This document shows, in pieces, positions 32,009 through 63,103 of a stretch of DNA of 64,000 bases. The notes beneath the pieces are model-generated. The model worked only from the letters and a program-made list of their open reading frames with translations, was not told the origin of the DNA and ran no database searches. How positions within the stretch are numbered: position 1 is the stretch's first letter; each line of letters begins with the position of its first letter. Source of the stretch: Malacoraja senta (Eukaryota). The translations under genes were made by a program, and so were the position numbers. Location: the NCBI GenBank assembly GCA_038087875.1, contig CM075995.1, forward strand, positions 6,822,001 to 6,886,000, written 5' to 3'.

Positions 32009-33289
32009 CCCCATACAGCCTGGCACCCGTACTAAGCAAGAATCTATCCGTCTCTGCCTTAAAAACATTCATTGACAGCCTCCACAGCTTTAAATCGTGA
32101 TGAATTCCACTGATTCACCACCCTCTGACTAAAGAAATTCATCCTCGTCTCCCTCCTAAAGGAACGTCCTTTAATTCCGAGGTTAAGACCTCTGGTCCTA
32201 GACTCTCCCACTAGTGGAAACATCCTCTCCACATCCACTCTATTCAGGCCCTTCACTATTTGATAAAGTTTCAATTAGGTTCCCCGTCATCCTACTAAAC
32301 TCCAGCAAGTAGAGTGCCAGCGCCGACAAGCACTTTCCATCTCCACCCACTGATCGACAAGGGAAGTTGGCAGCCCTTAGTGTTAATAAAACAGCTGCTG
32401 CTATATTTTTCCTTGGGCCCTGTCAGTGAAATATTTTTAATAACAGTACAGTACTTCATTTGATTCCAAACTCGCTCTGTGTCTTTCAAAGAAATAAACG
32501 GCAGCACTTACAGCGCCAGAGACCCGGGTTCGATCCCGACCACAGGTGCTGTCTGTACGGAGTTTGTACGTTCTACCCGTGACCTGCGTGGGTTTTCTCC
32601 GGGTGCTCCGGTTTCCTCCCACACTCCAATTTAGTCTTTGTTTTTCATTGCTTTTGTCTCAAGATGTTTCCTGGGGCATGTTCCTCTTTGCCTTTCTAAG
32701 TGCGTACGTGATTACAGGTTCAGGAACAGCTTCTTCCTTACAGCCATCAGCCTATTAAACACTGCAACCTCCAAATAAACTCTGAACTACATAAACTATT
32801 AATGTTATTATTGCACTTTTAATGTTTGTTTTATGTGTACATATGTGTGCGTGTGTGTATATAATATATACATATATCGTCTGTCACCAGTCTGACAGTC
32901 CCCGATTACATTTTATCTCTGTTTGCTTTGTTGTCAACTTTTCCTGGCTAACAATGATCAATTCTACATTTTCCTTGAACACCATCTCTTTTGATGTCTT
33001 GTTTTCACACCTTACCCTTCCTTATTTCTGTGTCTCCCTCTCCCCTGACTCTCAGTCTGAAGAAGGGTGTACATATATCTATATTACTAAAAGTAAGATC
33101 TTGACCGCTTTTGACTCACTGCGATGTGATTTCCGAGAGAACGCCGCCACTTACGGCCGTCACTTTTGGCCACCTCACTCAGAGCCCCCCTCCACCGGAC
33201 TGGACTGGAAGATTTTTCCCATCGATGAAAAATCAGAGAGATATTAATGTTTTAAAAAATGTCGCCATTCTCTCTGCTGCCCCTGCTGG

Positions 33290-33355
33290 TGGGAGGGGGA
33301 GGGACTATAAAACCCGGAAGTGGTGTGCCTCACTCAGTCTCTGCAAGATGGAGGA
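33290..33355 (+). promoter_or_regulatory. Putative Pol II core promoter 1 inside Helitron A
   Basis: GGGGGAGGG box, TATAAAA at 33306, ETS-like CCGGAAGT at 33314, Inr TCAGTC with its A at 33336 (30 bp from TATA), YY1-like CAAGATGG at 33344. Confidence 0.5.
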
Positions 33356-33444
33356 AGCGAGGTCACGTTTCTCTGAGCTCTGAATAACACTGAGCACATG
33401 TCTACTCAACTGTGAGTGCCCTTAATGTGGTTTGAAAATGAAAA

Positions 33445-36400
33445 TATGGTTGCTTTGAAATGCTGCACTGCAAAAAAAATGGATGTTGTTGGTGGTGGTA
33501 ACTGCTTTGAAAGACTGCACTGCAAAAAAAATGGCTGTTGTTGGTGGTGGTAACTGCTTTGAAAGGCTGCACTGCAAACAAAAAGGCTATTTTTGGTGGT
33601 GGTAAATGCTTTGAAAGGCTGCACTGCAAAAAATGGCTGTTGTTGGTTGTGGTAACTGCTTTGAAAGGCTGCACTGCAAAAAAATGGCTGTTGTTGGTGG
33701 TGGTAACTGCTTTTAAAAGACTGCACTGCAAAAAAAAATGGCTGTTGTTGGTGGTGGTAACTGCTTTGAAAGGCTGCACTGCAAAAAAAATGGCTGTTGT
33801 TGGTGGTGGTAACTGCTTTGAAGGGCTGCACTGCAAAAAAATGGCTGTTGTTGGTGGTGGTAACTGCTTTTAAATGGCTGCACTGGGGGAAAAAAGGCTG
33901 TTGTTGGTGGTGGTAACTGCTTTGAAAGGCTGCATTACAAAAAAAATGGCTGTTGTTGGTGGTGGTAACTGCTTTAAAAGGCTGCACTGCAAAAAAAATG
34001 GCTGTTGTTGGTGGTGGTAACTGCTTTGAAAGGCTGCACTACAACAACAAAAATGGCTGTTGTTGGTGGTGGTAACTGCTTTGAAAGACTGCACTGCAAA
34101 AAAAATGGCTGTTGTTGGTGGTGGTAACTGCTTTGAAAGGCTGCACTGCAAAAAAAAAGGCTGGTTTTGGTGGTGGTAAATGCTTTGAAAGGCTGCACTG
34201 CAAAAAATGGCTGTTCTTGGTTGTGGTAACTGCTTTGAAAGGCTGCACTGCAAAAAAAATGGCTGTTGTTGGAGATGGTAACTGCTTTTAAAAGGCTGCA
34301 CTGCCAAAAAAAATGGCTGTTGTTGGTGGTGGTAACTGCTTTGAAAGGCTGCACTGCAAAAAAAATGGCTGTTGTTGGTGGTGGTAACTGCTGTGAAAGG
34401 CTGCACTGCAAAAAAATGGCTGTTGTTCGTGGTGGTAACTGCTTTTAAATGGCTGCACTGGGGGAAAAAAGACTGTTGTTAGTGGTGGTAACTGCTTTGA
34501 AAGGCTACATTACAAAAAAAATGGCTGTTGTTGGTGGTGGTAACTGCTTTGAAAGGCTGCACTGCAAAAAAAATGGCTGTTGTTGGTGGTGGTAACTGCT
34601 TTGAAAGGCTGCACTGCAAAAAAATGGCTGTTGTTGGTGGTGGTAACTGCTTTTAAATGGCTGCACTGGGGGAAAAAAGGCTGTTGGTGGTAGTAACTGC
34701 TTTGAAAGGCTGCATTACAAAAAAAATGGCTGTTGTTGGTGGTGGTAACTGCTTTAAAAGGCTGCACTGCAAAAAAAATGGCTGTTGTTGGTGGTGGTAA
34801 CTGCTTTGAAAGACTGCACTGCAAAAAAAATGGCTGTTGTTGGTGGTGGTAACTGCTTTGAAAGGCTGCACTGCAAAAAAATGGCTGTTGTTGGTGGTGG
34901 TAACTGCTTTTAAAAGACTGCACTGCAAAAAAAATGGCTGTTGTTGGTGGTGGTAACTGCTTTGAAAGGCTGCACTGCAAAAAAAATGGCTGTTGTTGGT
35001 GGTGGTAACTGCTTTGAAAGGCTGCACTGCAAAAAAATAGCTGTTGGTGGTGGTAACTGCTTTTAAATGGCTGCACTGGGGGAAAAAAGGCTGTTGTTGG
35101 TGGTAGTAACTGCTTTGAAAGGCTGCATTACAAAAAAAATGGCTGTTGTTGGTGGTGGTAACTGCTTTAAAAGGCTGCACTGCAAAAAAAATGGCTGTTG
35201 TTGGTGGTGGTAACTGCTTTGAAAGGCTGCACTGCAACAAAAAAAATGGCTGTTGTTGGTGGTGGTAACTGCGTTGAAATGCTGCAGTCCCAAAAAATTG
35301 GCTGTTGTTGGTGGTGGTAACTGCTTTGAAAGGCTGCTGCACTGCAAAAAAAATGGCTGTTGTTGGTGGTGGTAACTGCTTTGAAAGGCTGCACTGCAAA
35401 AAGAAATGGCTGTTGTTGGTGGTAACTGCTTTGAAAGGCTGCACTGCAAAAAAAAAGGCTGTTGGTGGTGGTAACTGCTTTGAAAGGCTGCACTGCAAAA
35501 AAAAGGCTTTTGTTGGTGGTGGTAACTGCTTTGAAAGGCTGCTGCACTGCAAAAAAAATGGCTGCTGTTGGTGGTGGTAACTGCTTTGAAAGGCTGCACT
35601 GCAAAAAAAATGGCTGTTGTTGGTGCTGGTAACTGCTTTGAAAGGCTGCACTGCAAAAAAAATGGCTGTTTTTGGTGGTGGTAAATGCTTTGAAAGGCTG
35701 CACTGCAAAAAATGGCTGTTGTTGGTTGTGGTAACTGCTTTGAAAGGCTGCACTGCAAAAAGAAATGGCTGTTGTTGGTGGTAACTGCTTTGAAAGGCTG
35801 CATTGCAAAAAAAAAGGCTGTTGGTGGTGGTAACTGCTTTGAAAGGCTGCACTGCAAAAAAAAGGCTTTTGTTGGTGGTGGTAACTGCTTTGAAAGGCTG
35901 CTGCACTGCAAAAAAAATGGCTGCTGTTGGTGGTGGTAACTGCTTTGAAAGGCTGCACTGCAAAAAAAATGGCTGTTGTTGGTGGTGGTAACTGCTTTGA
36001 AAGGCTGCACTGCAAAAGAAATGGCTGTTTTTGGTGGTGGTAAATGCTTTGAAAGACTGCACTGCAAAAAATGGCTGTTGTTGGTTGTGGTAACTGCTTT
36101 GAAAGGCTGCACTGCAAAAAATGGCTGTTGTTGGTGGTGGTAACTGCTTTTAAAAGACTGCACTGCAAAAAAAAATGGCTGTTGTTGGTGGTGGTAACTG
36201 CTTTGAAAGGCTGCACTGCAAAAAAAATGGCTGTTGTTGGTGGTGGTAACTGCTTTGAAAGGCTGCACTGCAAAAAAATGGCTGTTGTTGGTGGTGGTAA
36301 CTGCTTTTAAATGGCTGCACTGGGGGAAAAAAGGCTGTTGTTGGTGGTAGTAACTGCTTTGAAAGGCTGCATTACAAAAAAAATGGCTGTTGTTGGTGGT

Positions 36401-38635
36401 GGTAACTGCTTTAAAAGGCTGCACTGCAAAAAAAATGGCTGTTGTTGGTGGTGGTAACTGCTTTGAAAGACTGCACTGCAAAAAAAATGGCTGTTGTTGG
36501 TGGTGGTAACTGCTTTGAAAGGCTGCACTGCAAAAAAATGGCTGTTGTTGGTGGTGGTAACTGCTTTTAAAAGACTGCACTGCAAAAAAAATGGCTGTTG
36601 TTGGTGGTGGTAACTGCTTTGAAAGGCTGCACTGCAAAAAAAATGGCTGTTGTTGGTGGTGGTAACTGCTTTGAAAGGCTGCACTGCAAAAAAATAGCTG
36701 TTGGTGGTGGTAACTGCTTTTAAATGGCTGCACTGGGGGAAAAAAGGCTGTTGTTGGTGGTAGTAACTGCTTTGAAAGGCTGCATTACAAAAAAAATGGC
36801 TGTTGTTGGTGGTGGTAACTGCTTTAAAAGGCTGCACTGCAAAAAAAATGGCTGTTGTTGGTGGTGGTAACTGCTTTGAAAGGCTGCACTGCAACAAAAA
36901 AAATGGCTGTTGTTGGTGGTGGTAACTGCGTTGAAATGCTGCAGTCCCAAAAAATTGGCTGTTGTTGGTGGTGGTAACTGCTTTGAAAGGCTGCTGCACT
37001 GCAAAAAAAATGGCTGTTGTTGGTGGTGGTAACTGCTTTGAAAGGCTGCACTGCAAAAGAAATGGCTGTTGTTGGTGGTAACTGCTTTGAAAGGCTGCAC
37101 TGCAAAAAAAAAGGCTGTTGGTGGTGGTAACTGCTTTGAAAGGCTGCACTGCAAAAAAAAGGCTTTTGTTGGTGGTGGTAACTGTTTTGAAAGGCTGCTG
37201 CACTGCAAAAAAAAATGGCTGCTGTTGGTGGTGGTAACTGCTTTGAAAGGCTGCACTGCAAAAAAAATGGCTGTTGTTGGTGGTGGTAACTGCTTTGAAA
37301 GGCTGCACTGCAAAAAATGGCTGTTGTTGGTTGTGGTAACTGCTTTGAAAGGCTGCACTGCAAAAAGAAATGGCTGTTGTTGGTGGTAACTGCTTTGAAA
37401 GGCTGCACTGCAAAAAAAAAGGCTGTTGGTGGTGGTAACTGCTTTGAAAGGCTGCACCGCAAAAAAAAGGCTTTTGTTGGTGGTGGTAACTGCTTTGAAA
37501 GGCTGCTGCACTGCAAAAAAAATGGCTGCTGTTGGTGGTGGTAACTGCTTTGAAAGGCTGCACTGCAAAAAAAAATGGCTGTTGTTGGTGGTGGTAAATG
37601 CTTTGAAAGACTGCACTGCAAAAAATGGCTGTTGTTGGTTGTGGTAACTGCTTTGAAACGCTGCACTGCAAAAAATGGCTGTTGTTGGTGGTGGTAACTG
37701 CTTTTAAAAGACTGCACTGCAAAAAAAAATGGCTGTTGTTGGTGGTGGTAACTGCTTTGAAAGGCTGCACTGCAAAAAAAATGGCTGTTGTTGGTGGTGG
37801 TAACTGCTTTGAAAGGCTGCAGTGCAAAAAAATGGCTGTTGTTGGTGGTGGTAACTGCTTTTAAATAGCTGCACTGGGGGAAAAAAGGCTGTTGTTGGTG
37901 GTAGTAACTGCTTTGAAAGGCTGCATTACAAAAAAAATGGCTGTTGTTGGTGGTGGTAACTGCTTTAAAAGGCTGCACTGCAAAAAAAAATGGCTGTTGT
38001 TGGTGGTGGTAACTGCTTTGAAAGACTGCACTGCAAAAAAAATGGCTGTTGTTGGTGGTGGTAACTGCTTTGAAAGGCTGCACTGCAAAAAAAATGGCTG
38101 TTGTTGGTGGTGGTAACTGCTTTTAAAAGACTGCACTGCGCAAAAAAAAATGGCTGTTGTTGGTGGTGGTAACTGCTTTGAAAGGCTGCACTGCAAAAAA
38201 AATGGCTGTTGTTGGTGGTGGTAACTGCTTTGAAAGGCTGCACTGCAAAAAAATAGCTGTTGGTGGTGGTAACTGCTTTTAAATGGCTGCACTGGGGGAA
38301 AAAAGGCTGTTGTTGGTGGTAGTAACTGCTTTGAAAGGCTGCATTACAAAAAAAATGGCTGTTGTTGGTGGTGGTAACTGCTTTAAAAGGCTGCACTGCA
38401 AAAAAAATGGCTGTTGTTGGTGGTGGTAACTGCTTTGAAAGGCTGCACTGCAACAAAAAAAATGGCTGTTGTTGGTGGTGGTAACTGCGTTGAAATGCTG
38501 CAGTCCCAAAAAATTGGCTGTTGTTGGTGGTGGTAACTGCTTTGAAAGGCTGCACTGCAAAAAAAAAAAGGCTGTTGTTGGTGGTGGTAACTGCTTTGAA
38601 AGGCAGCACGGCAAAACAAAAATTGGCTGTTTTTG
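33445..38635. repeat. Tandem array of ~52-bp units (~100 copies)
   Basis: Unit GGCTGTTGTTGGTGGTGGTAACTGCTTTGAAAGGCTGCACTGC(A)6-10T. Confidence 0.97.
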
Positions 38636-38837
38636 GAAGAAACTTGACAACTTCCTGTTTGCACTGGATATTGATTTTAGATAAAACGCTCCCACTTACG
38701 GCTGTGTTTTTTTTAGTAAGATACTCAGTTCCTCGCCATACATCAGGTGCAGAGGATTCTTCCCATGAATGGAAAATAAAAGTGTCATTAGTGTTTAAAA
38801 AAATGTTGAGAATCTCTCTCCTGTCAATCACGCCATG

Positions 38838-38920
38838 AAGGCCACGCCCCTTCCAGTTGGAGGGGGAGGGATTATAAAACCCGTAAGTGTGGGTGTGGCT
38901 CAGTCTCTGCAAGATGGGGG
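38838..38920 (+). promoter_or_regulatory. Putative Pol II core promoter 2 inside Helitron A
   Basis: GGCCACGCCCC (Sp/KLF-like), GGGGGAGGG, TATAAAA at 38873, Inr TCAGTC with its A at 38902, CAAGATGG at 38910. Confidence 0.48.
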
Positions 38921-39039
38921 AGAGAGAGGTCACGACTCTGTCTGAGCTGTGAATCATCTGAACACAATGAATGTCTACTGAACTGTGTGTGGTGTTTATG
39001 TGGTGTTTTGTGTGGTTTTATAGAGGTTTTATGGTGGTT

Positions 39040-40020
39040 TCATCCTGCTTGAAATGGTATGAAACTGCATTTGAATGTGGTGGCCTTGCACCCTGCTTGA
39101 AATGGTATGAAACTGCACTTCAATTTGGTTCTCTTGCACCCTGCTTGAAGTGGTATGAAACTGCACTTGAATTTGGTGGCCTTGCACCCTGCTTGAAATG
39201 GCATGAAACAGCACTAGCATTTGGTGGCCTTGCACCCTGCTTGAATTGACATGAAACTGCACTTGAATTTGGCGGCCTTGCACCCTGCTTGAAGTGGCAT
39301 GAAACTGCACTTGAATTTGGTGGCCTTGCACCCTGCTTGAAATGGAATGAAACTGCCCTTGAATTTGGTGGCCTTGCACCCTGCTTGAAATGGAATGAAA
39401 CTGCACTTGAATTTGGTGGCCTTGCACCCTGCTTGAAATGGCATGAAAGTGCACTTGAATTTGGTGGCCTTGCACCCTGCTTGAAATGGTACGAAACTGC
39501 ATTTGAATTTGGTTCCCTTGCACCCTGCTTGAAATGGAATGAAACTGCACTTGAATTTGGTGGACTTGCACCCTGCTTGAAGTGGTAGGAAACTGCACTT
39601 GAATTTGGTGGCCTTGCACCCTGCTTGAAGTGGTAGGAAACTGCACCTGAATTTGGTGGCCTTGCACCCTGCTTGAAGTGGTAAGAAACTGCACTTGAAT
39701 TCGGTGGCCTTGCACCCTGCTTGAAGTGGTATGAAACTGCAATTGAATTCGGTGGCCTTGCACCCTGCTTGAAGTGGTAAGAAACTGCACTTGAATTTGG
39801 TGGCCTTGCACCCTGCTTGAAGTGGTAGGAAACTGCACCTGAATTTGGTGGCCTTGCACCCTGCTTGAAGTGGTATGAAACTGCAATTGAATTTGGTGGC
39901 CTTGCACCCTGCTTGAAGTGGTAAGAAACTGCACTTGAATTTGGTGGCCATGCACCCTGCTTGAAATGGTAGGAAACTGTATTTGAATTTGGTTGCCTTG
40001 CACCCTGCTTGAAATGGAAT
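39040..40020. repeat. Tandem array of 48-bp units (~20 copies)
   Basis: Unit GAAACTGCACTTGAATTTGGTGGCCTTGCACCCTGCTTGAARTGGTAT; gives a 16-aa period in the ORF track. Confidence 0.97.
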
Positions 40021-40414
40021 TTCAAGGAATAGCCGTGAGTCAACTGCCAGCCCACCAGCCGTGAGTGAGCTGCCAGCACATCAGGCGTGAGGGACTGAGC
40101 TGCCACCCCAAGAATCCATTTGACCCACAATGTCCATACTAACCAGTCCCTTCAGCCCACAGTACCCATACTAGCGCTCCAGAAAGCCCCCCCCCACTGG
40201 CTACCAATATTGGAATTGGTGGAGAGGTGGAATATTGCATTGTGGGACCAGCCTTCCCGTGTGAACATGGGACCCAACGGGGGGGGGGGGGGGGGGGTCC
40301 CACATAGTCTAGTGTGTATATATATATATAGTACATACTCACATTGTAGGAGCCATTTATGCTTAGGATATGTGTCAAATTGCCATTACACACATATACA
40401 TATATATATATAGT

Positions 40415-41218
40415 CAATAGTCAGATTTATTCGTCGCAATAAAGTGCAGTGAAATGAATTTGCCAGCAGCGGTACAATAAAAAAAGAACACACAAAGCAC
40501 AATAAAAATTTAATACAAACATCCACCACAGCATTCATCACTGTGGTGGAAGGCACAAAGTTTAGTCAGTCCTCCTCCATTTTCCCCTGTGGTCGGACCA
40601 CAACCCTCCGCAGTCGCCGCTGCGGGCAGCCAGATGTGCAGACAAGGTAAGTCCTGAATTGGTGCTTCCCTACCGGAGACTGCGGCTTCAAGATGGTGTA
40701 GGCCGCAGGCCGGCGGTCGAAGATCTAAAGTCCCCGCCGCGCTGCAGTTAGAGGCACCGCAGACCGCGGCTTCAAAAGATGTTGTAGGCCGCGGGCCGGC
40801 GGTCGGAGCTCCTGTCCAGGTTTCCCCGGCGAGGGATCCCAGGCTCCGGACGCCGCGCCAGCTGGAGCTCCGTAGACCGCGGCTTCAGGCTGCCGCGGGC
40901 CAGCGATCGGAGCGCTTCCTTCTGACGAAGGCTCGCCCGCTCTGCGATGAAAAAGTCTACGCTACGCCTGCTGCTGAAGCCCCGGGCCCATCTCCGGGAA
41001 AGGCCGCACCGATCCTTTGTGTTAGGCCGCGAGGGAGGCGACATGGAAAAAGTTGCCTCTCCGTGGAGGAGGCGACCGAAGCGGTTTCCCCGTTACCCCC
41101 CCCACACAAGACACACCAAGAAACATTAAAAACACACATTGGGACATACTAAAAAAACAAAAAAAGTAGAAAATGACTAACACGCTGCTGGCAGGGTAGC
41201 CAGCTTGCAGCGCCCCCC
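40415..41218 (-). mobile_element. Unclassified GC-rich interspersed repeat related to 5360-6550
   Basis: Shared terminal blocks, CpG-rich core with internal repeats (agaccgcggcttca), tail ataaatctgactattgacta. Confidence 0.55.
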
Positions 41219-49443: not shown

Positions 49444-49751
49444 TCTATAATACTAAACTCTTCGTCTTGTTTGTGACTGTGTGTGTGTGTGTGTGTGTGA
49501 ATATCTGATTAATTCCTATTTTCTACCACAAACGCTAGGCCACAGCCTTCCCATTTTCACACATTCTACTTACATTTTTCCCGTTGAGGTGATAAACATC
49601 TTCCCGTCGCATTCCCACCTATATTTCCAAAGTTTTTAATCATTTCAAGTTTTAAGAACAGCCCGAAAACTCACCCTTTTCGGAACCCCCCCCCCCCCCC
49701 CAGAGTGACGTCAATGCACTCGCAGGGCAGGACGAGACATTCTCCCTCTAC
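49444..49751 (+). mobile_element. Possible 5' end of a third Helitron-like family, truncated by the gap
   Basis: A|TCTATAATACTAAACTCT resembles the starts of families A and B and follows (TA)n; the 3' end is not visible. Confidence 0.5.
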
Positions 49752-49951
49752 NNNNNNNNNNNNNNNNNNNNNNNNNNNNNNNNNNNNNNNNNNNNNNNNN
49801 NNNNNNNNNNNNNNNNNNNNNNNNNNNNNNNNNNNNNNNNNNNNNNNNNNNNNNNNNNNNNNNNNNNNNNNNNNNNNNNNNNNNNNNNNNNNNNNNNNNN
49901 NNNNNNNNNNNNNNNNNNNNNNNNNNNNNNNNNNNNNNNNNNNNNNNNNNN
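49752..49951. other. Assembly gap (200 N)
   Basis: Run of N. Confidence 1.
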
Positions 49952-50417
49952 TTTCCTCCACCACTCCAATTTAGTCTTTGTTTTTCATTGCTTTTGTCTC
50001 AAGATGTTTCCTGGGGCATGTTCCTCTTTGCCTTTCTAAGTGCGTACGTGATTACAGGTTCAGGAACAGCTTCTTCCTTACAGCCATCAGCCTATTAAAC
50101 ACTGCAACCTCCAAATAAACTCTGAACTACATAAACTATTAATGTTATTATTGCACTTTTAATGTTTGTTTTATGTGTACATATGTGTGCGTGTGTGTAT
50201 ATAATATATACATATATCGTCTGTCACCAGTCTGACAGTCCCCGATTACATTTTATCTCTGTTTGCTTTGTTGTCACCTTCTCCTGGCTAACAATGATCA
50301 ATTCTACATTTTCCTTGAACACCATCTCTTTTGATGTCTTGTTTTCACACCTTACCCTTCCTTATTTCTGTGTCTCCCTCTCCCCTGACTCTCAGTCTGA
50401 AGAAGGGTGTACATATA

Positions 50418-53400
50418 TCTATATTACTAAAAGATCTTGACCGCTTTTGACTCACTGCGATGTGATTTCCGAGAGAACGCCGCCACTTACGGCCGTCATT
50501 TTTGGCCACCTCACTCAGAGCTCCCCTCCACCGGACTGGACCGGAGGATTTTTCCCATCGATGAAAAATCAGAGAGATATTAATGTTTTTAAAAAGTCGC
50601 CATTCTCTCTGCTGCCCCTGCTGTGGGAGGGGGAGGGACTATAAAACCCGGAAGTGGTGTGCCTCACTCAGTCTCTGCAAGATGGAGGAAACGAGAAGGT
50701 CACGTTTCTCTGAGCTCTGAATAACACTGAGCACATGTCTACTCAACTGTGAGTGCCCTTAATGTGGTTTGAAATGAAAATATGGTTGCTTTGAAATGCT
50801 GCACTGCAAAAAAAATGGCTGTTGTTGGTGGTGGTAACTGCTTTGAAAGGCTGCACTGCAACAAAAAAAATGGCTGTTATTGGTGGTGGTAACTGCTTTG
50901 AAAGACTGCACTGCAAAAAAAATGGCTGTTGTTGGTGGTGGTAACTGCTTTGAAAGGCTGCACTGCAAAAAAAAAGGCTGTTTTTGGTGGTGGTAAATGT
51001 TTTGAAAGGCTGCACTGCAAAAAAATGGCTGTTGCTGGTTGTGGTAACTGCTTTGAAAGGCTGCACTGCAAAAAAAATGGCGGTTGTTGGTGGTAGTAAC
51101 TGCTTTGAAAGGCTGCACTGCAAAAAATGGCTGTTGTTGGTGGTGGTAACTGCTTTGAAAGGCTGCACTGCAAAAAAATGGCTGTTGTTGGTGGTGGTAA
51201 CTGCTTTTAAATGGCTGCACTGGGGAAAAAGGCTGTTGTTGGTGGTGGTAACTGCTTTGAAAGGCTGCATTACAAAAAAAATGGCTGTTGTTGGTGGTGG
51301 TAACTGCTTTAAAAGGCTGCACTGCAAAAAAAATGGCTGTTGTTGGTGGTGGTAACTGCTTTGAAAGGCTGCACTGCAACAAAAAAAATGGCTGTTGGTG
51401 GTGGTAACTGCTTTGAAAGACTGCACTGCAAAAAAAAATGGCTGTTGTTGGTGGTGGTAACTGCTTTGAAAGGCTGCACTGCAAAAAAAATGGCTGTTGT
51501 TGGCGGTGGTAACTGCTTTGAAAGGCTGCACTGCAAAAAAATGGCTGTTGTTGGTGGTGGTAACTGCTTTGAAAGGCTGCACACAAAAAAATGTCTGTTG
51601 TTGGTGGTGGTAACTGCTTTTAAATGGCTGCACTGGGGGGAAAAAGGCTATTGTTGGTAGTGGTAACTGCTTTGAAAGGCTGCATTACAAAAAAAATGGC
51701 TGTTGTTGGTGGTGGTAACTGCTTTGATAGGCTGCACTGCAAAAAAAAATGGCTGGTTTTGGTGGTGGTAACTGCTTTTAAATGGCTGCACTGGGGAAAA
51801 AAAGGCTGTTGTTGGTGGTGGTAACTGCTTTGAAAGGCTGCATTACAAAAAAAAATGGCTGTTGTTGGTGGTAACTGCTATAAAAGGCTGCACTTCAAAA
51901 AAAAAGCTGTTGGTGGTGGTAACTGCTTTGAAAGGCTGCACTGCAAAAAAAAGGCTTTTGTTGGTGGTGGTAACTGCTTTGAAAGGCTGCTGCACTGCAA
52001 ACAAAATGGCTGTTGTTGGTGGTGGTAACTGCTTTGAAAGGCTGCACTGCAAAAAAAAATGGCTGTTGTTGGTGGTAACTGCTTTGAAAGGCTGCACTGC
52101 AAAAAAAAAAGGCTGTTGGTGGTGGTAACTGCTTTGAAAGGCTGCACTGCAAAAAAAAGGCTTTTGTCGGTGGTGGTAACTGCTTTGAAAGGCAGCACGG
52201 CAAAAAAAAAATGGCTGTTGTTGGAGGAAACTTGACAACTTCTTGTTTGCACTGGATATTGATTTTAGATAAAACGCTACCACTTACGGCTGTGATTTTT
52301 GAGTAAGACACTCAGTTCCTCGCCATACATCAGGTGCAGAGGATTCTTCCCATCAATGGAAAATAAAAGTGTCATTAGTGTTTAAAAAAATGTTGAGAAT
52401 CTCTCTCCTGTCAATCACAGTTGGAGGGGGAGGGATTATAAAACCCGTAAGTGTGGGTGTGGCTCAGTCTCTGCAAGATGGGGGAGAGAGAGGTCACGAC
52501 TCTGTCTGAGCTGTGAATCATCTGAACTCAATGAATGTCTACTGAACTGTGAGTGTGGTGTTTATGTGGTGTTATAGTGGTTTTATGGTGGTTTCATCCT
52601 GCTTGAAATGGTAGGAAACTGCATTTGAATGTGGTGGCCTTGCACCCTGCTTGAAATGGTATGAAACTGCACTTCAATTTGGTTGTCTTGCACCCTGCTT
52701 GAAGTGGTATGAAACTGCACTTGAATTTGGTGGCCTTGCACCCTGCTTGAAAAGGCATGAAATAGCACTAGCATTTGGTGGCCTTGCACCCTGCTTGAAT
52801 TGACATGAAACTGCACTTGAATTTGGCGGACTTGCACCCTGCTTGAAGTGCCATGAAACTGCACTTGAATTTGGTGGCCTTGCATCCTGCTTGAAATGGA
52901 ATGAAACTGCACTTGAATTTGGTGGCCTTGCACTCTGCTTGAAGTGGTTGGAAACTGCACTTGAATTCGGTGGCCTTGCACCCTGCTTGAAGTGGTAGGA
53001 AACTGCACTTGAATTCGGTGGCCTTGCACCCTGCTTGAAGTGGTAGGAAACTGCACCTGAATTCGCTGGCCTTGCACCCTGCTTGAAGTGGTAAGAAACT
53101 GCACTTGAATTCGGTGGCCTTGCACCCTGCTTGAAGTGGTATGAAACTGCAATTGAATTCGGTGGCCTTGCACCCTGCTTGAAGTGGTAAGAAACTGCAC
53201 TTGAATTTGGTGGCCTTGCACCCTGCTTGAAGTGGTAGGAAACTGCACCTGAATTTGGTGGCCTTACACCCTGCTTGAAGTGGTATGAAACTGCAATTGA
53301 ATTTGGTGGCCTTGCACCCTGCTTGAAGTGGTAAGAAACTGCACTTGAATTTGGTGGCCATGCACCCTGCTTGAAATGGTAGGAAACTGCATTTGAATTT

Positions 53401-53713
53401 GGTTGCCTTGCACCCTGCTTGAAATGGAATTTCAAGGAATAGCCATGAGTCAACTGCCAGCCCACCAGCCGTGAGTGAGCTGCCAGCACATCAGGCGTGA
53501 GGGACTGAGCTGCCACCCGAAGAATCCATTTGGCCCACAATGTCCATACTAACCAGTCCCTTCAGCCCACAATACCCATACTAGCGCTCCAGAAAGCCCC
53601 CCCCCCCCCCCCACTGGCTACCAATATTGGAATTGGTGGAGAGGTGGAATATTGCATTGGGGGACCGGCCCTCCCGTGTGAACATGGGACGCAACGGGTC
53701 CCACATAGTCTAT
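50418..53713 (+). mobile_element. Helitron-like family A, second copy (arrays at 50785-52225, ~28 units, and 52594-53430, ~17 units)
   Basis: Same 5' end and same left flank as 33078; 3' GGGACGC-aac-GGGTCCC-ACATAGT-CTAT (CTAG mutated). Confidence 0.82.
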
Positions 53714-53751: not shown

Positions 53752-56401
53752 TCTATTATTATATAAAACTCTCTGGCTGTCGTCCGTCTGTACGGCTGTA
53801 CGTCTGTACGTCCAACGTTCTGCTTGACTTTCCCGCCTTTGATACCGCCCCGCGCCCGCGCGGCGCGCGGAAACGCCGATATTTTTTACCGTTTCTAAAG
53901 AGGTTACGTTTATCTTTACGAATAGACGATCCCGATTAAATTTGGTCGTGTTTAGGTACGCTTTTTAAAATAAAATACCTCTACCCCCCCCAAACCAAAC
54001 ATTTCAAAATGTTTAAAAAAACAGCTCAGCCGTAGAATGTTAGTAAAGATTCCGTTGTGTGATGTCACAATGCACAATGATCACAGATGTCCAATCGGAA
54101 TGGATCCATTTACATATGCCTTTGCGGCGACCCAAGCCCCGGCCCCTCCCCCCCAACCCCCGCAGCATTGGGCATTGTGACATCACAAAACGGAACCTTC
54201 ATTTACATTCTATTGCTGAGAGCTGTTTGTTTAACATTTTTAAATGTCCCCATTCCCTATCACCCCCACACACGTGGCGACGCCCTGCGACACGTGTGAC
54301 AAATCGAAATGAATCCGTTTACATATGCCTTGGCAGCAGCCCCAGCCCCAGCCCCTCCCCCCACCCCCGCAGCCTGTGTCACGTGTGTGGCAATAGAGAA
54401 AGAGGATTGGGGGTGATAGGGAATGGGTAACAGATGGACTGTCCCTACCCCTCCTACTTCAACTCTCCCTCCCCACTCTTCCCCCTCTCTCCTCCCCCCC
54501 TCCCTCCCCTCCCACACCCTCTCTTCCCCCTCCACCACCCCTCTTCACCCCCATCTCCCCCTACCCCCTTCCCCTCTCTCTGGCACCACTCCCCGCTACC
54601 CCTCTGCCCCTCACTCACCACTCTTCCCCTCTCCCTCCCCCACCTCTATCCCTCCCCCCTCCCTCTCTCCCTCTCTTCCCCCTACTCCTCTCCCCTTCCC
54701 CTCATCCCCTCTCTCCACCTCTAACATCCCCTCCCCCCCTCCCCCCTTCCTGCCCTCCCCGCTCTCCTCCCACTCCCCACTCTCCTCCCCGTCCCTCTCC
54801 CCCCACCCTGCTCTCTTCTCCCTCACCAACTCTCCCCTTTCCTCCTCCCCCTCTCTCCTCCCTCCCATCCCTCCCCTCTTCTCTCCCCACCCCCTCCCCC
54901 CCTCTTCTCTCCCAACCCCGTCGCCACCCTCCACCCTCCCCACACCTCTCTACCCTTCTCCTCGCCTTACCCACCCCTCTCTCTTCCCCCTCTCCTCACC
55001 CCTCTCCCTCTCACCCCCTTCCTCCTCCCACCCCCATTACTCTCTCCCACATCCCACTTCCCTCTCTCACCCCGTCCCCTTCCCCCTACCCCGCTATCCC
55101 TCTTCAACCACTCCCCCTACACCTCTCCCCCTCCCTCTCTCCCACTTCCACCACTCCCCCTACACCTCTCCATCTCCCTCCCCATTCTTCCACTTAACTC
55201 CCAAACCCATCCCCATCTCCCTCCACAACCCCCTCCCCCACCCCTCTCCCCCCTCCCTTCTCTCTCACTCCCCACTCTTCCACTCTCCCTCCCCCACCTC
55301 TATCCCTCCCCCCTCCTCTCCCTCTCTTCCCCCTACTCCTCTCCCCTTCCCCTCATCCCCTCTCTCCACCTCTAACATCCCCTCCCCCCCTCTCCCCCCT
55401 TCCTGCCCTCCCCGATCTCCTACCACTCTCCTCCCCCTCCCTCTCCCCCACCCTGCTCTCTTCTCCCTCACCAATTTCTCCCCTTTCCTCCTCCCCCTCT
55501 CCCCTCCCTCCCCCTCTCCTCTTCTCTCCCCACACCGTCTCCCTCTCCCCTCTTCTCTCCCCACCCCGTCTTCCTCTCCACCCCTCCCCGCCTGTGTTTG
55601 GGGGGTGGTTAGTGTGAGTGTGATGCCGCAGCCCCCCCCCCCTCCCGCAAACGCGCGTTGGGAAAACAGCCCGCCAACAGTCTCTCTGTCTCTAAGACAG
55701 AACTGAAGATGCTTGAAAATCAAAAAAATGCTTCATAACCTCAGCGGGTGCAGCAGCATCTATGTATCAAAAGAAATAGACAACGTTTCCTGAAAACCCG
55801 TCTGAGGATGGGTTTCCGCCAAAAACATTGCCTATTTCCTTCACTCCATAGATGCTGCTGCACCCGCAGTGTTTCTCGAGTTTTATTGTGTGTACCAGTC
55901 TATCTGTCTCTCCCCTCTCTCTCTCTCTCTGCCCTTCTCTCTTCACAGCCCGCGACTCAACTCATGCACGCCTGCTCCAACCCACCCCCTTCACCTCTCT
56001 CCCCATCCTCTTCTTCCTCTCTCCACCCCTCTCCTCTCTCACCCTCCTCTCTCCCCACCTTCCTCACCCCCCTTCCTCTCAACCCTCCTCCTCCCCACCT
56101 CACAATTTTTTTTTTAACATTAAAATTTCACTCTCTACACTACCCCCCCCCCTCGAGACGTACCTGAGAGGTGAGGGCTATTCGTCAGTGGATAGGGTGG
56201 AGATGGAATAAAAGAAGAAAATTAAAATATTAATATAATATCAAGGGGTGTGATGAGTGTGTGTGTTTGTGGGTGCCAGATTCACACCCCGCAACCCTGC
56301 TTTGGAGGTACAGAACCAACGGGTGGTTAGTGTGACGTCACTGCCCCCCGCCCCAAACGCAGGTTCGGTGTCCAGACCCAACGGGTCTGCACTTGGTCTA
56401 G
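53752..56401 (+). mobile_element. Non-autonomous Helitron-like element, family B, copy 1
   Basis: 5' A|TCTATTATTATATAAAACTCTC plus (CGTCTGTA)n; 3' hairpin CAGACCC-aac-GGGTCTG (56373-56389) then CACTTGGT-CTAG|T. Confidence 0.82.
54450..55590. repeat. CT-rich polypyrimidine tract with an internal duplication (shorter version at 57070-57545)
   Basis: Direct reading; it is the source of the Pro/Ser/Leu ORFs. Confidence 0.9.
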
Positions 56402-58071
56402 TATACTTTTAAAACTCTCTGGCTGTCGTCCGTCTGTACGTCTGTACGTCTGTACGTCTGTACGTCCAACGTTCTGCTTGACTTGTCCCGCCTTTGATAC
56501 CGCCCCGCGCCCACGCAGCGCGCGGAAACGCCGATATTTTTTACCGTTTCTAAAGAGGTTACGTTTATCTTTACGAATAAAGAAAAACCTTCATTTACAT
56601 TCTATTGCTGAGAGCTGTTTGTTTAACATTTTGAAATTTCCCCATTCCCTATCACCCCACACACGTGGCGACGCCCTGCGACACGTGTGACAAATCGAAA
56701 TGAATCCGTTTACATATGCCTTTGCAGCACCCACAGCCCCAGCCCCTCCCCCCAACCCCACAGCCTGTGTCGAAAGGCGTCGCCACGTGTGTGGGGGGGA
56801 TAGGGAATGGGGAAATTTCAAAATGTTTTAAAAAAAACAGCTCTCAGCAATAGAATGTAAATGAAGGTTCCGTTTTGTGATGTCACAATGCACAATGCTC
56901 AAAGATGTCCAATCGAAATGAACCAATTTACATATGCCTTTGCAGCAGCAACAGCACCAGCCCCTCCCCCCACCCCCCGCAGCCTGTGTCGAAGGGCGTC
57001 GTCACGTGTGTGGCAATAGAGAAAGAGGATTGGGGGTGATAGGGAATGGGTAACAGATGGACTGTCCCTACCCCTCCTACTTCAACTCTCCCTCCCCACT
57101 CTTCCCCCTCTCTCCTCTCCCCTCCCTCCCCTCCCACACCCTCTCTTCCCCCTCCACCACCCCTCTTCACCCCCATCCACCCACCCCCTTCACCTCTCTC
57201 TTGCACCACTCCCCGTAACCCCTCTGCCCCTCACTCCCCACTGTTCCCCTCTCCCTCACCCACCTCTCTCCCTCCCCGTCCCTCTCTCCCTCTCTTCCCC
57301 CTACTCCTCTCCCCTTCCCCTCATTCCCTCCACCCCTCTCCCCCCTTCCTGCCCTCCCCGCTCTCCTCCCACTCCCCACTCTCCCCACCTCCCTCTCACC
57401 CACCCTGATCTCCTCTCCCTCCCCAATCTCTCCCCTTTCCTCTTCCCCCTCTCCCCTCCCTCCCCCTCTCCTCTTCTCTCCCTACCCCGTCTCCCTCTCC
57501 CCTCTTCTCTCCCCACCACGTCTTCCTCTCCACCCCTCCCCCGCCTGTGTTTGGGGGGTGGTTAGTGTGAGTGTGATGCCGCAGCCCCCCCTCTCCCTCC
57601 CGCAAACGCGCGTTGGGAAAACAGCCCGCCAACAGTCTCTCTGTCTTTAAGACAGAACTGCAGATGCTTGAAAATCAAAGGTACACAAAAAAATGCTTCA
57701 TAACCTCAGCGGGTGCAGCAGCATCTATATCAAAAGAAATAGACAACGTTTCGTGAAAAAACCGTCTGAGGATGGGTTTCCGCCAAAAGCATTGCCTATT
57801 TCCTTCACTCCATAGATGCTGCTGCACCCGCAGTGTTTCTCGAGTTTTATTGTGTGTACCAGTCTATCTGTCTCTCCCCTCTCTCTCTCTCTCTGCCCTT
57901 CTCTCTTCACAGCCCGCGACTCAACTCATGCACGCCTGCTCCAACCCACCCCCTTCACCTCTCTCCCCCATCCTCTTCTTCCTCTCTCCACCCCTCTCCT
58001 CTCTCACCCTCCTCTCTCCCCACCTTCCTCACCCCCCTTCCTCTCAACCCTCCTCCTCCCCCACCTCACAA
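56402..58071 (+). mobile_element. Helitron-like family B, copy 2 (head-to-tail with copy 1, interrupted by L1)
   Basis: Begins directly after CTAG with tatacttttaaaactctctggctgtcg; homologous to copy 1 up to cacctcacaattttt (copy 1 position ~56105). Confidence 0.82.
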
Positions 58072-58505
58072 TTTTTTTTTATTTTTTTTTTTTTTATTTT
58101 TTTTTTAATTTTTATTTATTAGAAGTACATTACATCACAGCCACATACATTAATACTCGTCATTTATATCTTCTTACAATTAATGTACTCCCTTTATTTA
58201 TTTTTTTTACACTAAAGAAAGAAAAGATTGAAAGAGAGAAGAAAGTGAAGGAAAAAGTGCAAGTGTAGAAAAGTGTAGAAAATGTAACAACAAAAAAAAA
58301 AGGACGAGGACCCTATGAGAGCGAAATTAAAAACAAAAAGAAAAAGAGTTAAGAAATAGGCCCTAAGAAAAGAAAAGAGAGAGAGAAAAAAAGAAAAACA
58401 AATGTTTTTTATTGAGCATCACGTAAATAGGACATACCAACTCTTCAACTATCATCCCCCCTTACCCGACCTCAATTTTTTATTTTTTTAAAGTACTTTT
58501 GCACC

Positions 58506-61500
58506 CTATGTTTGTAATAATTCTATAAATGCAGACCACGTCAGGTGGAAGTGATCTGGTTTACCTGCTAGGAGGAGTCTTATCTCTTCAAGGTGTAGTG
58601 TTTCAAACATATTTGAAATCCACATATTTATAGTTGGTATTGGAGCCTTCTTCCAAAATTTTAGAATTAGCTTTTTTCCAGTTATTAACCCATAATCCAT
58701 TAATTTCTTTTGAAACACATTTAGTTCTGGATCATCTTCCGTTATTCCGAAGATAATCCATTCTGCTTTGGGTATCAGTCTTGTTTTAAATAACTTTGTA
58801 AAGATTTCAAAAATTTCATTCCAAAATTTTTGAATTTTTGTACAGAAGACAAATGAGTGCGCTATAGTTGCTTCTTGGGATTGACATTTATCACAAATAG
58901 ATGATACGTTTGGGAAAATTTTATGAATTTTAGTTTTCGAATAATATAATCTATGTAAAATTTTAAATTGTATTAAAGTGTGTCTTACATTAATCGAGCA
59001 TTTATGTACTTTTAATAAGTATTCATTCCAACTTTCCTTTGAAATTTTAATAGCTAACTCTTGTTCCCAGTCTCTTCTGATACCCTCCGTAGATGGTATT
59101 TGTACATTTAAGATAATATTGTACAAATATGATATTAAGTTTGTTGATTCCGCTTTTGTCTGCATTGCCTCGTCCAGTACATCTGCTGGGTTATTATGAT
59201 GATCTTTTATATATTTTTTCAAATAGTCGCATATTTGAAAGTATTTAAAATATTGATTATTTCCGAGTTTATATTTTATTTGTAATTGTTGAAATGAAAG
59301 TAATTTTCCAGTTTCATACAAGTCACCAAGCGTTTTAATTCCTAGTCTATCCCATTGTGTATAAGCTTTATCTATAATAGAAGGACTAAACGAAGGGTTA
59401 TTGACTATAGGTAATAAAAGTGATAAGTTTCTTAATTTTAAATTTTGTTTTATTTGTTTCCAAATACGGATTGTACTATGAATAATTGGGTTCTTATTAT
59501 AGTTTATGTTATTCAATTTCATTGGAGAGAGGAGGATCGCTCCAATGTTTCTAGAGGAGCAATCCTCTTTCTCCATTACAATCCAGTCTACTTGCTGGGC
59601 GGAGTTATCCATCAGTTGAATCATGTTTTTAATATTTACTGACCAATAATAATACATAAAATTGGGTAGTGCTAGACCCCCCAATACTTTAGATTTATTC
59701 AGATGGGTTTTTTGTATTCTATGTGATTTATAGTCCCATATAAAATTAGTGATATCTGAGTCGAGTTTTTTAAAAAACTTCTTAGGTAAGTATATAGGAA
59801 TTGATTGAAATAGGTATAAAATTTGTGGTAAAAAGATCATTTTTATTGCGTTTATTCGGCCTATTAAAGACATCGGAAGCGTTTTCCAGAATTTAATTAA
59901 TGTATTCAGTTTATTAAGTAGGGGGTCAAAATTTGCCCTGAGCATACCTTGATATGCTCTGGTAATTTCGATTCCCAAATATTTAAATTTTTCTGTAGCT
60001 ATTTTAAAAGGGAATTTTAAAAGATGTGTTGAATCTTTCGGTTTTATTGACATAATTACACTTTTATTCCAATTTATTCTATATCCAGAAAAAGATCCGA
60101 AGTCTTCAATTAAATTTAATATATTTGGTATAGTGATTTGAGGTTTTGTAATATACAATAATATATCATCCGCGTATAAAGATATTTTATTATATGAGTC
60201 TTTAGTATTATATCCATGAATATCAGGGTGTATTCTAATTTTTTCTGCTAGCGGTTCAATAATGAGAGCAAACAGCTGTGGTGATAATGAGCATCCTTGT
60301 CTATTTCCCCCTTGATAGTTGAAATTTCGAGGATAATATGTTATTAGTAAGTATTCTAGCTGTAGGTTTGTTATATAGTAACTTAATCCATAAAATAAAA
60401 TTCTCTCCCAGTTGAAATTTTTGTAATACTTTATCCATATAATTCCATTCTACTTGATCAAATGCTTTTTCAGCATCCAGCGAAATAATTGATAATTCTT
60501 GATCTTCAGATTTGTGTGAGTGCATTATGTTGAGTAGACGTCTCATATTATTAGAAGAGTATCTCTTAGGGATAAACCCTGTCTGATCTGGGTTTATTAA
60601 TTTACTAATGTATTTACTTAATCTTCTGGCTAATGTTTTCGCTAATATTTTTTGATCTGTGTTTAACAATGCTATAGCTCTATATGAGCCAGGTTCTTCT
60701 AAATCCTTATTTTTCTTAGGTATTAATGTAATCGTTGATTCCGCTAATGTATCAGGTAGTATTCGTTTTTTAAAAGCGTATTGGTACATTTTTTGTAATC
60801 TTGGTATTATTTTATCATAAAAGTTTTTATAAAATTCATTAGTAAATCCATCAGGGCCTGGTGTTTTTCCATTTTTTAGTGAGTTTATTGTATCTTCTAA
60901 TTCCTTAATTGAGATTTGTGCACCCAGTTCCTCTTGTTCCTTCAGCTCTAACTTTGGAAGATTACAGGTATCCAAGAACTTTGTGATATTATTGGAATCA
61001 ATTATCGTTTTAGATGTATACAAATTCTCGTAAAATTGCGCAAATCTTTTATTAATATCCTTCGGTGTTGTTAATAATTCCCCTTTATCTGATTTGATCT
61101 TTGGTATAGTATGTTCCTTTTCTCGTTTTTTTAGCTGGCGAGCCAAAAGTTTATGCGGTTTATCCCCAAATTCAAAGTGCTCTTGTTTTGTAATTTGAAA
61201 AAGTCTTATAAGTTTGGCAGATAATAATTTATTTAATTTAAATTTTAAAATTATTATTTTATTATGTTTATCTATTGTTGGATCTTTAGCATTATCTATA
61301 TCCATTTGTCTAATAAGTTCTTCTAACTGTCTTTGTTCATTCTTATTCTTTTTATTTTGAAAAGCTTGATATGAAATTATAATACCCCTAATGTATGCTT
61401 TAAAAGATTCCCAAAGTAAAGTAGGCGATATATCTGAAGTATCATTTGTTTGAAAAAAGACCTCCATTTGTTCTTTTAAATATATACTCGCTTGTGGATC

Positions 61501-62298
61501 TTTTAAAATTTGAGAGTTAAATCTCCAGAATGAATTATTCTTAGACAGTCCTTCCAGTTTTAAAAAGAAAGTTAGTGGAGAATGGTCTGAAATTGAATTT
61601 GTATGATATATTGCATTAGATGTTTGGGGGATTAATTTTGTATCCAGCAGAAAGTAGTCTATACGTGAGTATGTCTTATGTACCATTGAGTAAAACGAAT
61701 ATTCCCTGCCAGTTGGATTCACAATTCTCCAAACATCTGCTATATTAGTGTTGTTTATGTAGGTATTGAGGAGTTCCCCAGTTTTCGATTTCATATTCCC
61801 TCTCTGTTTTTGACTTGATTTATCTAAGTACGGGTCTAAAACACAATTAAAGTCTCCGCCTATTATAACATTTTGATAGTTTGACTCTGCAATTATATTG
61901 AAGATTTTATTGAAAAAGTGGGGGTTATCAAAGTTAGGGGCATATATATTTACCAAAGTAAGTGGAGTGTCATGGATTTCTCCATTAACTATTAGGTATC
62001 TCCCTTCTATATCTGTTATAATATTCTTTGCTTTAAATGGTATACCTTTTCTTATGATAATTGACGTGCCTCTAGATTTTGAAGTGAATGAAGAGTGGTA
62101 TGTTTGACCTATCCATTTCGCCCTCAGCCTAACTTGGTCCTGAGGTTTTAGGTGTGTTTCTTGTAGGAAGGTAATGTCAGAATTATACATTTTTAGCTGA
62201 GCTAATATCTTACCCCTTTTGATAGGTTCATTAATACCTCTTATATTCCAACTACAAAATGAGACTCCTCCTAGGTTCTTTTGTGTGGTGTCATGCAT
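58506..62298 (-). CDS. L1 ORF2 (APE endonuclease, RT, CCHC) with one +1 frameshift at 60307-60311
   Basis: SWNIRG, FLQETH, NIYAPN, GGDFN, YSRIDY, SDH; KTPGPDG, SLDAEKAFD, RQGCSLSP, YADD (60165-60176), FKYLGI, CDKC-x8-H-x4-C. Removing one base gives 1263 aa. Confidence 0.93.
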
Positions 62299-63103
62299 TT
62301 TGAATAATTATAGTACCTTTGAATCTTGTGGTGCGTCCATATCCCAGGTCTTTAGGTATTGGGGGAGTTTTTGAATTATTAACTTTTGTTGGTATGTCCA
62401 TATTATTCTTATCACTAAACACAAAACACAAACAAGTGATTTTATGTAATAAAAAAAAAACTAAAAAAGTGAGGCTACAGTGTCTATAGTCGGCACTGTA
62501 GCAAGTGACCCACCTGTAGGTGGGAAAAAACCTTATTTTGACTTCCATTGCGTTGTTGCTCAACTCGCTCCGCTCTCTTAGTTAATCATAACATATTAAA
62601 ATATTAAAACGAGGCCTCACATTCATATATATAATACAATTTTACCCTGATATTTCCTTATAACATATATATATATCAGAGTTTAATTATTAAACCAATA
62701 TTTTTGATTTCAATAAGAATCAGCTGTTGGTTGAAGGGGTTAACGAGACGTGCTCCTGGACATAAGCCAGGAGCTCGTTTCTCATCCCCTCCTCCCGCTT
62801 ATAGACAAGGTTACAATTTATTAAAAATTCATATTAGTATGTTAGTTCATTATTTTTTTGTTTTTTTTGTTAGTATTCTAATCTAACCTGCATAACTTTT
62901 AAAGTTGTTAATAGGATAAGTTCTTACAATTGGTTATAACATTTTAATCAATAAGCAATTATTTTCTAATTCATATCCCGTTATAAAGTTGTTTACACGT
63001 TTTGAACAGAAAATGTCCTTGCTTCAACATTCCGGAGATAACAGTGTAACTATCCCCAGACAAAACATAGCTGAGAATTATTCGGATCTGCCAAAGCTCC
63101 CTT

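Follow-up and report, generated by a model that had tools for sequence, protein, structure and literature searches.

The genomic sequence studied here, a stretch of 64,000 nucleotides from Malacoraja senta (referred to as the window in the following), contains at positions 33078–40312 an element of 7.2 kb that bears the complete signature of an HLE1 Helitron as defined in PMC11417382, running from A/TC to CTAG/T (slashes mark the insertion borders; Table 1). It is probably a non-autonomous member of a very abundant skate family, mobilized by a RepHel protein in trans and composed of a duplicated left part, two arrays carried as passengers and inherited promoter-like cargo. This is a well-known kind of element, of which only the doubled, putatively promoter-like layout is unusual; its class is known to be abundant in skates, and what the locus contributes is its anatomy. 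A previous, sequence-only reading of the window had likewise seen a non-autonomous canonical Helitron with two arrays, and this part of its interpretation stands. Its proposal of an undescribed system does not, since HLE1 Helitrons are abundant and catalogued in skates, with 11,154 calls in Leucoraja erinacea according to the HELIANO supplement (PMC11417382), and since the excerpted reports cited below contain precedents for two arrays, for a doubled left end and for a cargo of promoter, exon and donor alike.

Table 1. Features of the Helitron at 33078–40312 and of related elements in the window.
Feature	Position	Strand	Details
5' TC end and leader 1 (left terminal sequence)	33078–33450	+	A/TC at 33077/33078
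Promoter-like core of leader 1 (predicted)	33291–33417	+	G-rich box 33291–33303; TATA 33306; ETS-like site 33314–33321; initiator-like A 33336; ATG 33348 (strong context); donor-like GTGAGT 33412
52-bp minisatellite, 100 units	33451–38636	+	TRF: 52 bp x 99.8, score 8111
Leader 2, a divergent duplicate of the first	38641–39043	+	Alignment to leader 1
Core parts of leader 2 (putative)			TATA 38873; initiator-like A 38902; ATG 38914
48-bp minisatellite, 20 full units and one partial	39044–40017	+	TRF: 48 bp x 20.3, score 1577
3' segment	40018–40312	+	26-bp dimer 40031–40091; terminator hairpin 40268–40302; CTAG/T 40309–40312/40313
Second copy of the same insertion, including flank	49952–53713	+	Shared flank 49952–50417; element 50418–53713
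Helitron-like family B, different from the element at 33078–40312	53752–56401	+	Internal comparison of end structure

The two ends and the two arrays were recovered much as they had been read from the letters. At the 3' end, a perfect 8-bp stem (40268–40275/40295–40302) ends 6 nt before CTAG and encloses a loop of 19 nt, which is lengthened by a poly-G run; among the 347 CTRR/T sites of the window, nine have a comparable stem upstream. The last 91 nt of the element fold, as a whole region, no better than shuffled sequences (z -0.92). As the folding energy is thus unremarkable, we assign the terminator hairpin from its stem, which is perfect, and from its loop motif, which a second Helitron end has in common with it: the 10-mer ACCCAACGGG occurs in the window only at 40272 and 56376, each time shortly 5' of a CTAG/T. 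The element sits between A and T in a TA/TG microsatellite, which resumes 3' of it with the T and a TG/TA tract. At this one locus, no abutting repeat of 2–14 nt is found at the element ends, and its first and last 100 nt share no subterminal inverted repeat of at least 11 nt, the longest exact match being 7 nt.

These features bear on the possibility that the carrier is of the Helentron type (HINE) or a MITE, or that a plain dispersed satellite block has its TC and CTAG ends by chance. Internal satellite arrays are indeed commoner in HLE2/HINE elements, as described in the excerpt of PMC7492417, and 39 of 43 Xenopus arrays are Helitron2-derived according to that of PMC12001565; yet the absence of subterminal inverted repeats and of a target-site duplication, together with an A/T rather than a T/T insertion site, argues against a HINE. 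Similarly, TC and CTRR are frequent by chance, as the number of CTRR/T sites in the window illustrates, but chance ends would neither share a hairpin loop with a second CTAG end nor coincide with the point at which other loci begin to match. We therefore regard this group of explanations as extremely improbable.

The element has no coding capacity. No Rep or helicase family was detected in the 81 frames scanned, as the sequence-only reading had anticipated, and none of the 17 stop-to-stop frames of at least 30 aa in both leaders and the 3' segment (17/17) matched a Pfam family. Three minus-strand array frames did yield Pfam matches (Fibrinogen_BP, TnpW, DUF7751 and others), which we rejected as artefacts that sum over repeated short stretches. 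Rfam gave 0 matches across the entire 64,000-nt window, and neither array dimers nor either element end surpassed shuffled sequences in folding (z -0.9 to +1.6). The element would be copied in trans by a RepHel protein from another locus, which would nick it at the 5' TC, displace the strand through the element and stop at the hairpin before CTAG; no duplication would accompany insertion of the product between A and T, in this case in the TA/TG microsatellite. This course of nicking, displacement and termination reportedly goes back to the work on Helraiser, from which we extend it to the skate element.

A likely source of such a protein are skate Helitrons of the type of Helitron-1_AmRa and Helitron-2_AmRa, whose RepHel proteins are listed for Amblyraja radiata in the supplement of PMC11417382. 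Together with the L. erinacea calls, they represent the same element class in the same host group and at similarly high abundance, a comparison by the names and counts given in this supplement.

The window holds further Helitron-like ends, at 49444, 53752–56401 and 56402, which, like a second copy of the element, are absent from the earlier reading. Family B starts similarly (TCTA...TAAAA), shares the loop motif of the hairpin and likewise ends in CTAG. The second copy follows a 200-N gap and begins with 466 bp of upstream flank in common with the first copy; its element terminates in CTAT instead of CTAG and has a mismatch in the stem. The shared flank differs at 4 of 466 positions (99.1% identity) and the element at 23 of 1,012 (Fisher p 0.06), and both copies diverge about 20 nt past the 3' end, though they are not independent; given the shared upstream flank, we rejected a separate insertion. 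Homology between dispersed copies extending past TC and CTAG had been named as evidence against the element. Formally, the 466-bp flank match makes the second copy such a case, but a local duplication or a haplotype adjoining the assembly gap explains it better, and three contigs from elsewhere start to match at the TC end (see below). We also considered a composite reaching from the Helitron-like end at 49444 through the gap, and discarded it because its stretch has no counterpart upstream of the first copy.

Sequencing runs indicate how widespread these sequences are. Between 0.38 and 0.48 of 458 sequence words were found in 14 runs, which represent 7 organism labels and 9 studies, and no run contained half of them. 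No RNA run was listed among them, and a further nine runs were left out, six with small shares of the words and three with almost none. As the leaders and the 3' segment account for 25.5% of the distinct 31-mers and the flanks for 19%, the best-matching runs must contain array words as well, provided that sampling was even. Over 33088–33450, the summed contig depth, which is not a copy number, reached 1.4e4–9.4e5 in three DNA-like runs, versus 24–35 for long contigs of run X3 (another run, X15, was first guessed to be RNA and flagged as probably DNA on alignment). Three long X3 contigs, among 32 of 75,388 pieces, begin to match at 33074, 33075 and 33080, and those fitting from 33075 and 33080 carry 1068 and 790 unrelated bases beforehand. 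The TC end therefore looks like a true element boundary, although none of the 24 loose-end rows considered (of 2,010) had a loose end at 33078. This supports the leader as a dispersed repeat of high copy number, its homology beginning at TC in these three long contigs. At many leader positions the window copy has a letter other than the majority one in the runs, and subfamilies therefore exist. The bins at 32640–32695 were uncovered in all four aligned runs, and pattern scans gave 0 matches in metagenome and viral contigs, collections not expected to contain skate DNA. Elsewhere in the window, a CR1 protein matches L. erinacea at 93%, Mobula at 85%, Hypanus at 83% and Pristis at 63% identity, which places the host near the skates; the named matches of an L1 protein are teleosts at 37–44% and do not place it.

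The interior of the element is built around its two leaders, whose homology was confirmed at 70.6% identity over 255 bp (E 3e-31) within the same copy and reaches 73.2% over 302 bp (E 6e-41) between leader 1 and the leader 2 of the second copy. Leader 2 lacks the first ~20 nt of leader 1 and hence the TC end. We infer that the left part, comprising the leader and the sequence following it, was duplicated long ago; the inner leader would then have lost its TC end, and the short units expanding behind the two leaders would have differed. Alternatively, the locus could be a composite of two related Helitron subfamilies, one with leader 1 and the 52-bp array, the other with leader 2, the 48-bp array and the 3' end, joined by nested or adjacent insertion, such that the 7.2-kb unit is not mobile as such. 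Leader 2 would then be a relative of leader 1 clipped at its 5' side, and both the clustering of Helitrons of this genome in TA tracts (49444, 50418, 53752, 56402) and the leader subfamilies would fit. However, neither a hairpin-CTRR/T end between the cassettes nor a TC start before leader 2 is present, and array words are found in several other species, which makes such a composite very unlikely. The second copy has an identical cassette junction, which is not independent evidence in this question.

Both leaders retain a core resembling a GC-box, TATA, initiator and ATG, in which the putative G-rich box, TATA, ETS-like, initiator-like and donor-like elements at 33291–33417 are named after consensus motifs. 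Most likely, this core is inherited cargo, derived either from an autonomous parent, whose promoter and first exon it would represent, or from a 5' end captured from the host. It has also to be considered whether the leaders work as promoters for Pol II, each with a splice donor after a short first exon, such that every copy can transcribe its satellites or splice into genes nearby, and whether the core was kept for this reason. The spacing from TATA to initiator, 30 nt in leader 1 and 29 nt in leader 2, would suit such a role, and among the 7 TATA/initiator composites on both strands of the window only 3 lie beyond the leaders, two of which are one duplicated flank site. Between the leaders, the core is identical at 54/63 positions versus 132/189 in the upstream part (Fisher p 0.013, for a window picked after looking), but it does not differ from the downstream part (69/88, p 0.29), and selection in autonomous ancestors would account for its conservation equally well. 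Moreover, the ETS-like site is changed in leader 2, the donor-homologous site at 38985 is degenerate in leader 2 of the first copy, and the frames from the ATG end after 11–12 codons and are shifted between the two leaders. On paper, the donor at 33412 could be spliced to a leader 2 acceptor in an RNA polyadenylated at 38775, the single AATAAA of the whole element, but such motifs are common.

A precedent for an active unit is HelibatN3 of Myotis, likewise an HLE1 element with a promoter, a short coding start (six codons) and a donor near its 5' end, which was amplified to about a thousand copies (excerpts of PMC4778049 and PMC4224331). There, the donor gene, NUBPL, and activity were shown, whereas the skate core is known from its motifs; furthermore, HelibatN3 has a single cassette, and these excerpts describe no arrays in it. 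On balance, we consider an active transcription unit unlikely; it would be compatible with a non-autonomous Helitron and bears on function only. Quite unlikely, too, is the wider reading of a skate-wide Helitron that spreads, in thousands of copies, a doubled working promoter-exon-donor module with a minisatellite in intron position after each; similarly doubtful is that it would thereby seed two satellites and supply transcription starts across skate genomes, in the manner of HelibatN3 but with two modules in each element and with array length as a means of tuning. Activity of the cores would add skates to the vertebrate lineages in which Helitrons distribute ready-made promoters in large numbers, and would allow a test of how Helitron transcription is linked to satellite birth, with the little skate as a tractable model.

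Other parts of this anatomy recur in known elements, as described in the excerpts of the respective reports. Cg_HINE_10_13 and Cg_HINE_11_12 of Crassostrea gigas (PMC7492417) are likewise non-autonomous rolling-circle elements that disperse two consecutive satellite-like arrays, but are of the Helentron type, with subterminal inverted repeats, TT sites and monomers of 100–500 bp, and no duplicated promoter-like leader is described in that excerpt. HelenXT233 of Xenopus tropicalis (PMC11417382) also combines two non-identical left terminal sequences as a direct repeat in one element; however, it is an autonomous HLE2 in which each left end marks its own subfamily. Length-variable internal minisatellites make up much of the non-autonomous copies of HelitronY1/Y1A in C. 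elegans (35 bp; 10.64898/2026.08.08.743475) and of Heli2Xen in Xenopus laevis (166 bp; PMC12001565), which differ in host and unit and are described there with a single array type.

In the skate element, the arrays would be passengers that lengthen and shorten in place. A common origin of the 52- and 48-bp units is not supported, their alignment score of 26 being matched by 200 of 500 shuffles. Within the 52-bp array, 34698 and 36355 mark two occurrences of one block of 13 units, and a 7-unit block is present three times. These repeated multi-unit blocks, together with the unit counts of the two copies of the same insertion (100 versus 28 units of 52 bp, 20 versus 17 of 48 bp), show that the arrays grow and shrink, by slippage and unequal exchange. 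With ~2% divergence of the unique parts, the difference between 100 and 28 units indicates that the internal arrays change fast after insertion.

By inspection, the Helitron-like element begins with TC, preceded by A, and ends with CTAG, followed by T, and the anatomy that a sequence-only reading had given it, with these two ends, two tandem arrays and two homologous leaders, is borne out. The leaders are 70.6% identical over 255 aligned bp (E 3e-31), and leader 1 matches leader 2 of a second copy over 302 bp at 73.2% identity. As this homology begins about 20 nt inside leader 1, leader 2 does not possess a TC end. The 3' hairpin lies 6 nt upstream of CTAG and consists of a perfect 8-bp stem and a loop of 19 nt, which is stretched by a poly-G run. 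On both strands of the window, a G+C-rich perfect stem of at least 6 bp is found upstream of 9 of the 347 CTRR sites that are followed by T, and a 10-mer from the loop region occurs at two places only, at 40272 and before the CTAG (followed by T) that ends at 56401. When folded in silico, the terminal 91 nt are no more stable than shuffled sequences (z -0.92). We found no target-site duplication in the form of an abutting repeat of 2-14 nt at the ends, and no inverted repeat longer than 7 nt between the first and the last 100 nt. On this set of ends, we consider it very improbable that the carrier is not a Helitron or is of the Helentron/HINE type (HLE2).

Features of the window discussed here
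Feature	Position	Strand	Description	Basis
Helitron-like element (copy 1)	33078-40312		leader 1, 52-bp array, leader 2, 48-bp array, 3' segment	sequence inspection
52-bp array	33451-38636		99.8 units	Tandem Repeats Finder
48-bp array	39044-40017		20.3 units	Tandem Repeats Finder
Second copy	50418-53713		28 and 17 full units (52-bp, 48-bp); ends CTAT
Hammerhead-like-core repeat	33030-33068; 515, 24557, 25603, 31127, 31405, 43490, 46546			pattern match
Third Helitron-like family, start	49444-49751		TC after 227-bp AT microsatellite
Family B, two copies	53752-58070		head-to-tail
Long L1-type LINE	58071-64000	minus	ORF2 in two frames, 58509-60449 and 60304-62307

The assignment to Helitrons without Rep/helicase was likewise right: a Pfam scan matched none of 81 reading frames to a Rep/helicase family. 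Of these frames, 17 came from the leaders and the 3' segment, 58 from Helitron-like stretches nearby and three from the 48-bp array; the other three were retroelement controls, two of which gave reverse-transcriptase matches. Rfam yielded no match in the window. We regard the element as most probably a non-autonomous canonical Helitron (HLE1), which would be mobilized in trans by the Rep/helicase transposase RepHel. As shown for Helraiser (PMC4778049), the left end would be indispensable and the hairpin would serve as terminator. The two leaders may stem from an ancient duplication of the left part, with a different unit expanding behind each; relatedness between the 52-bp and 48-bp units is not demonstrable (an equally high score is reached in 200 of 500 shuffles). 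That the element is a composite of two subfamilies peculiar to this locus seems unlikely to us.

Clearly, the family of this putative HLE1 Helitron occurs in great abundance. For 32630-40700, 23 runs were listed; 14 of them, from nine studies and under seven organism labels, contain 0.38-0.48 of 458 short sequence samples, and none of the 23 contains half. The leaders and the 3' segment account for 25.5% of the distinct 31-mers and the flanks for 19%, so that, if sampling was even, the runs with the highest shares must include samples from the arrays. When contigs were aligned to 32640-33450 at 85% likeness, summed depth over the leader was 1.4e4-9.4e5 in three DNA-like runs, which is not a copy number, compared with 24-35 for long contigs in run X3. 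Homology between dispersed copies had been expected to stop at TC, and it does so at the 5' end in three long X3 contigs, among 32 of 75,388 aligned pieces listed: two have 1,068 and 790 unrelated bases before fitting from 33075 (record 27, 1,295 bp) and 33080 (record 28, 945 bp), and the third, on the minus strand in our own reading of its orientation, fits from 33074 (record 26, 1,638 bp). The homology thus starts at TC, within a few TA-rich bases. No loose contig end at 33078 appears among 24 of 2,010 rows listed.

The second copy represents one and the same insertion, either by local duplication or as an uncollapsed haplotype, since both copies share 466 bp of upstream flank (32612-33077 and 49952-50417; 99.1%, 4 substitutions, 0.86%) and are each followed by a TG/TA tract, after which they diverge. 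In the unique parts of the element, 23 of 1,012 positions differ between the copies, and this divergence is not significantly different from that of the flank (p 0.06). The shared flank begins directly after a 200-N gap, a possible sign of an uncollapsed haplotype in the assembly. In the 48-bp array, the order of the outer units agrees between the two copies, but units further inside have been gained or lost. Within the 52-bp array of copy 1, a block of 13 units is present twice and one of 7 units three times; the arrays thus change size in place. CpG is nearly absent from both arrays (observed/expected 0.04 and 0.07), and the 52-bp array combines a strong GC skew (+0.38) with an A-tract in each unit.

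The suggestion of an undescribed system did not hold, as abundant skate HLE1, double arrays, doubled left ends and promoter cargo all have precedents. The HELIANO supplement (PMC11417382) gives HLE1 calls in four of eight chondrichthyans: Leucoraja erinacea has 11,154, Mobula birostris 4,818, Hypanus sabinus 1,651 and Carcharodon 1. It also has RepHel entries from Amblyraja radiata (Helitron-1_AmRa, Helitron-2_AmRa). Double arrays are in print for two Cg_HINE elements (PMC7492417), internal minisatellites for HelitronY1 (10.64898/2026.08.08.743475) and Heli2Xen (PMC12001565), and two left ends, comparable to the two leaders, for HelenXT233 (PMC11417382). HelibatN3 carries promoter-exon-donor cargo (PMC4778049, PMC4224331). 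Listings of the literature searched gave no published description of the element's family, for which Repbase or Dfam may well have an entry. The element is real, but belongs to a known kind; only the doubled promoter-like leader stands out and deserves further attention.

Both leaders contain a G-rich box, TATAAAA and, 30 and 29 nt after it, an initiator-like TCAGT, followed 12 nt later by an ATG in strong context and, 60-70 nt further, by a donor-like site; the names promoter, initiator and donor are labels that we assume for these motifs. Frames from the ATG stop after 11-12 codons. Counting both strands, seven TATA-initiator composites occur in the window: the leaders account for four, the duplicated flank for two and an AT tract for one. 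Between leaders, the core is 86% identical (54/63), compared with 70% upstream (132/189; p 0.013, with the interval chosen post hoc) and 78% downstream (p 0.29). Leader 2 of copy 1 has a 23-bp segment (38831-38853), absent from the second copy, with what we take to be an extra GC/CACCC-box-like motif just upstream of the G-rich box. In the simplest reading, the core would be inherited cargo, either a promoter with first exon from an autonomous parent (in Xenopus, ChIP peaks mark the 5' end of Heli1Xen1, which is autonomous; PMC12001565) or a captured host 5' end, as in HelibatN3. It is possible, if rather doubtful, that the leaders are active promoters, which would add to the reading as a trans-mobilized Helitron and not replace it.

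The surroundings are a gene-poor mosaic of interspersed repeats. The flank upstream of the element is another abundant repeat, which continues differently after 33068 in some 500-600 contigs of each DNA run; we take it to be of Penelope type, with a minimal hammerhead-ribozyme-like core. Seven complete cores were matched in the window, without an Rfam match at gathering level, and the copy next to the Helitron breaks off 9 nt short of TC. Other Helitron-like families have ends at 49444, 53752-56401 and 56402, with TA-rich tracts preceding the three that have a TC start. The first copy of family B has a hairpin-CTAG end at 56401, to which the second adjoins directly, without a clean TC; their interiors are C/T-rich, of low complexity and with internal inverted segments, a partial end-like motif lies at 56316, and the second copy is cut by an L1 tail. 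The third family is cut by an assembly gap (49752-49951). The best named matches of the window's CR1-type retroelement protein reach 93% identity in L. erinacea, 85% in Mobula, 83% in Hypanus and 63% in Pristis, which makes a skate the most probable host. The L1-type LINE has reverse-transcriptase and endonuclease Pfam matches in ORF2, ORF1-like sequence upstream and best relatives that are 56% identical.
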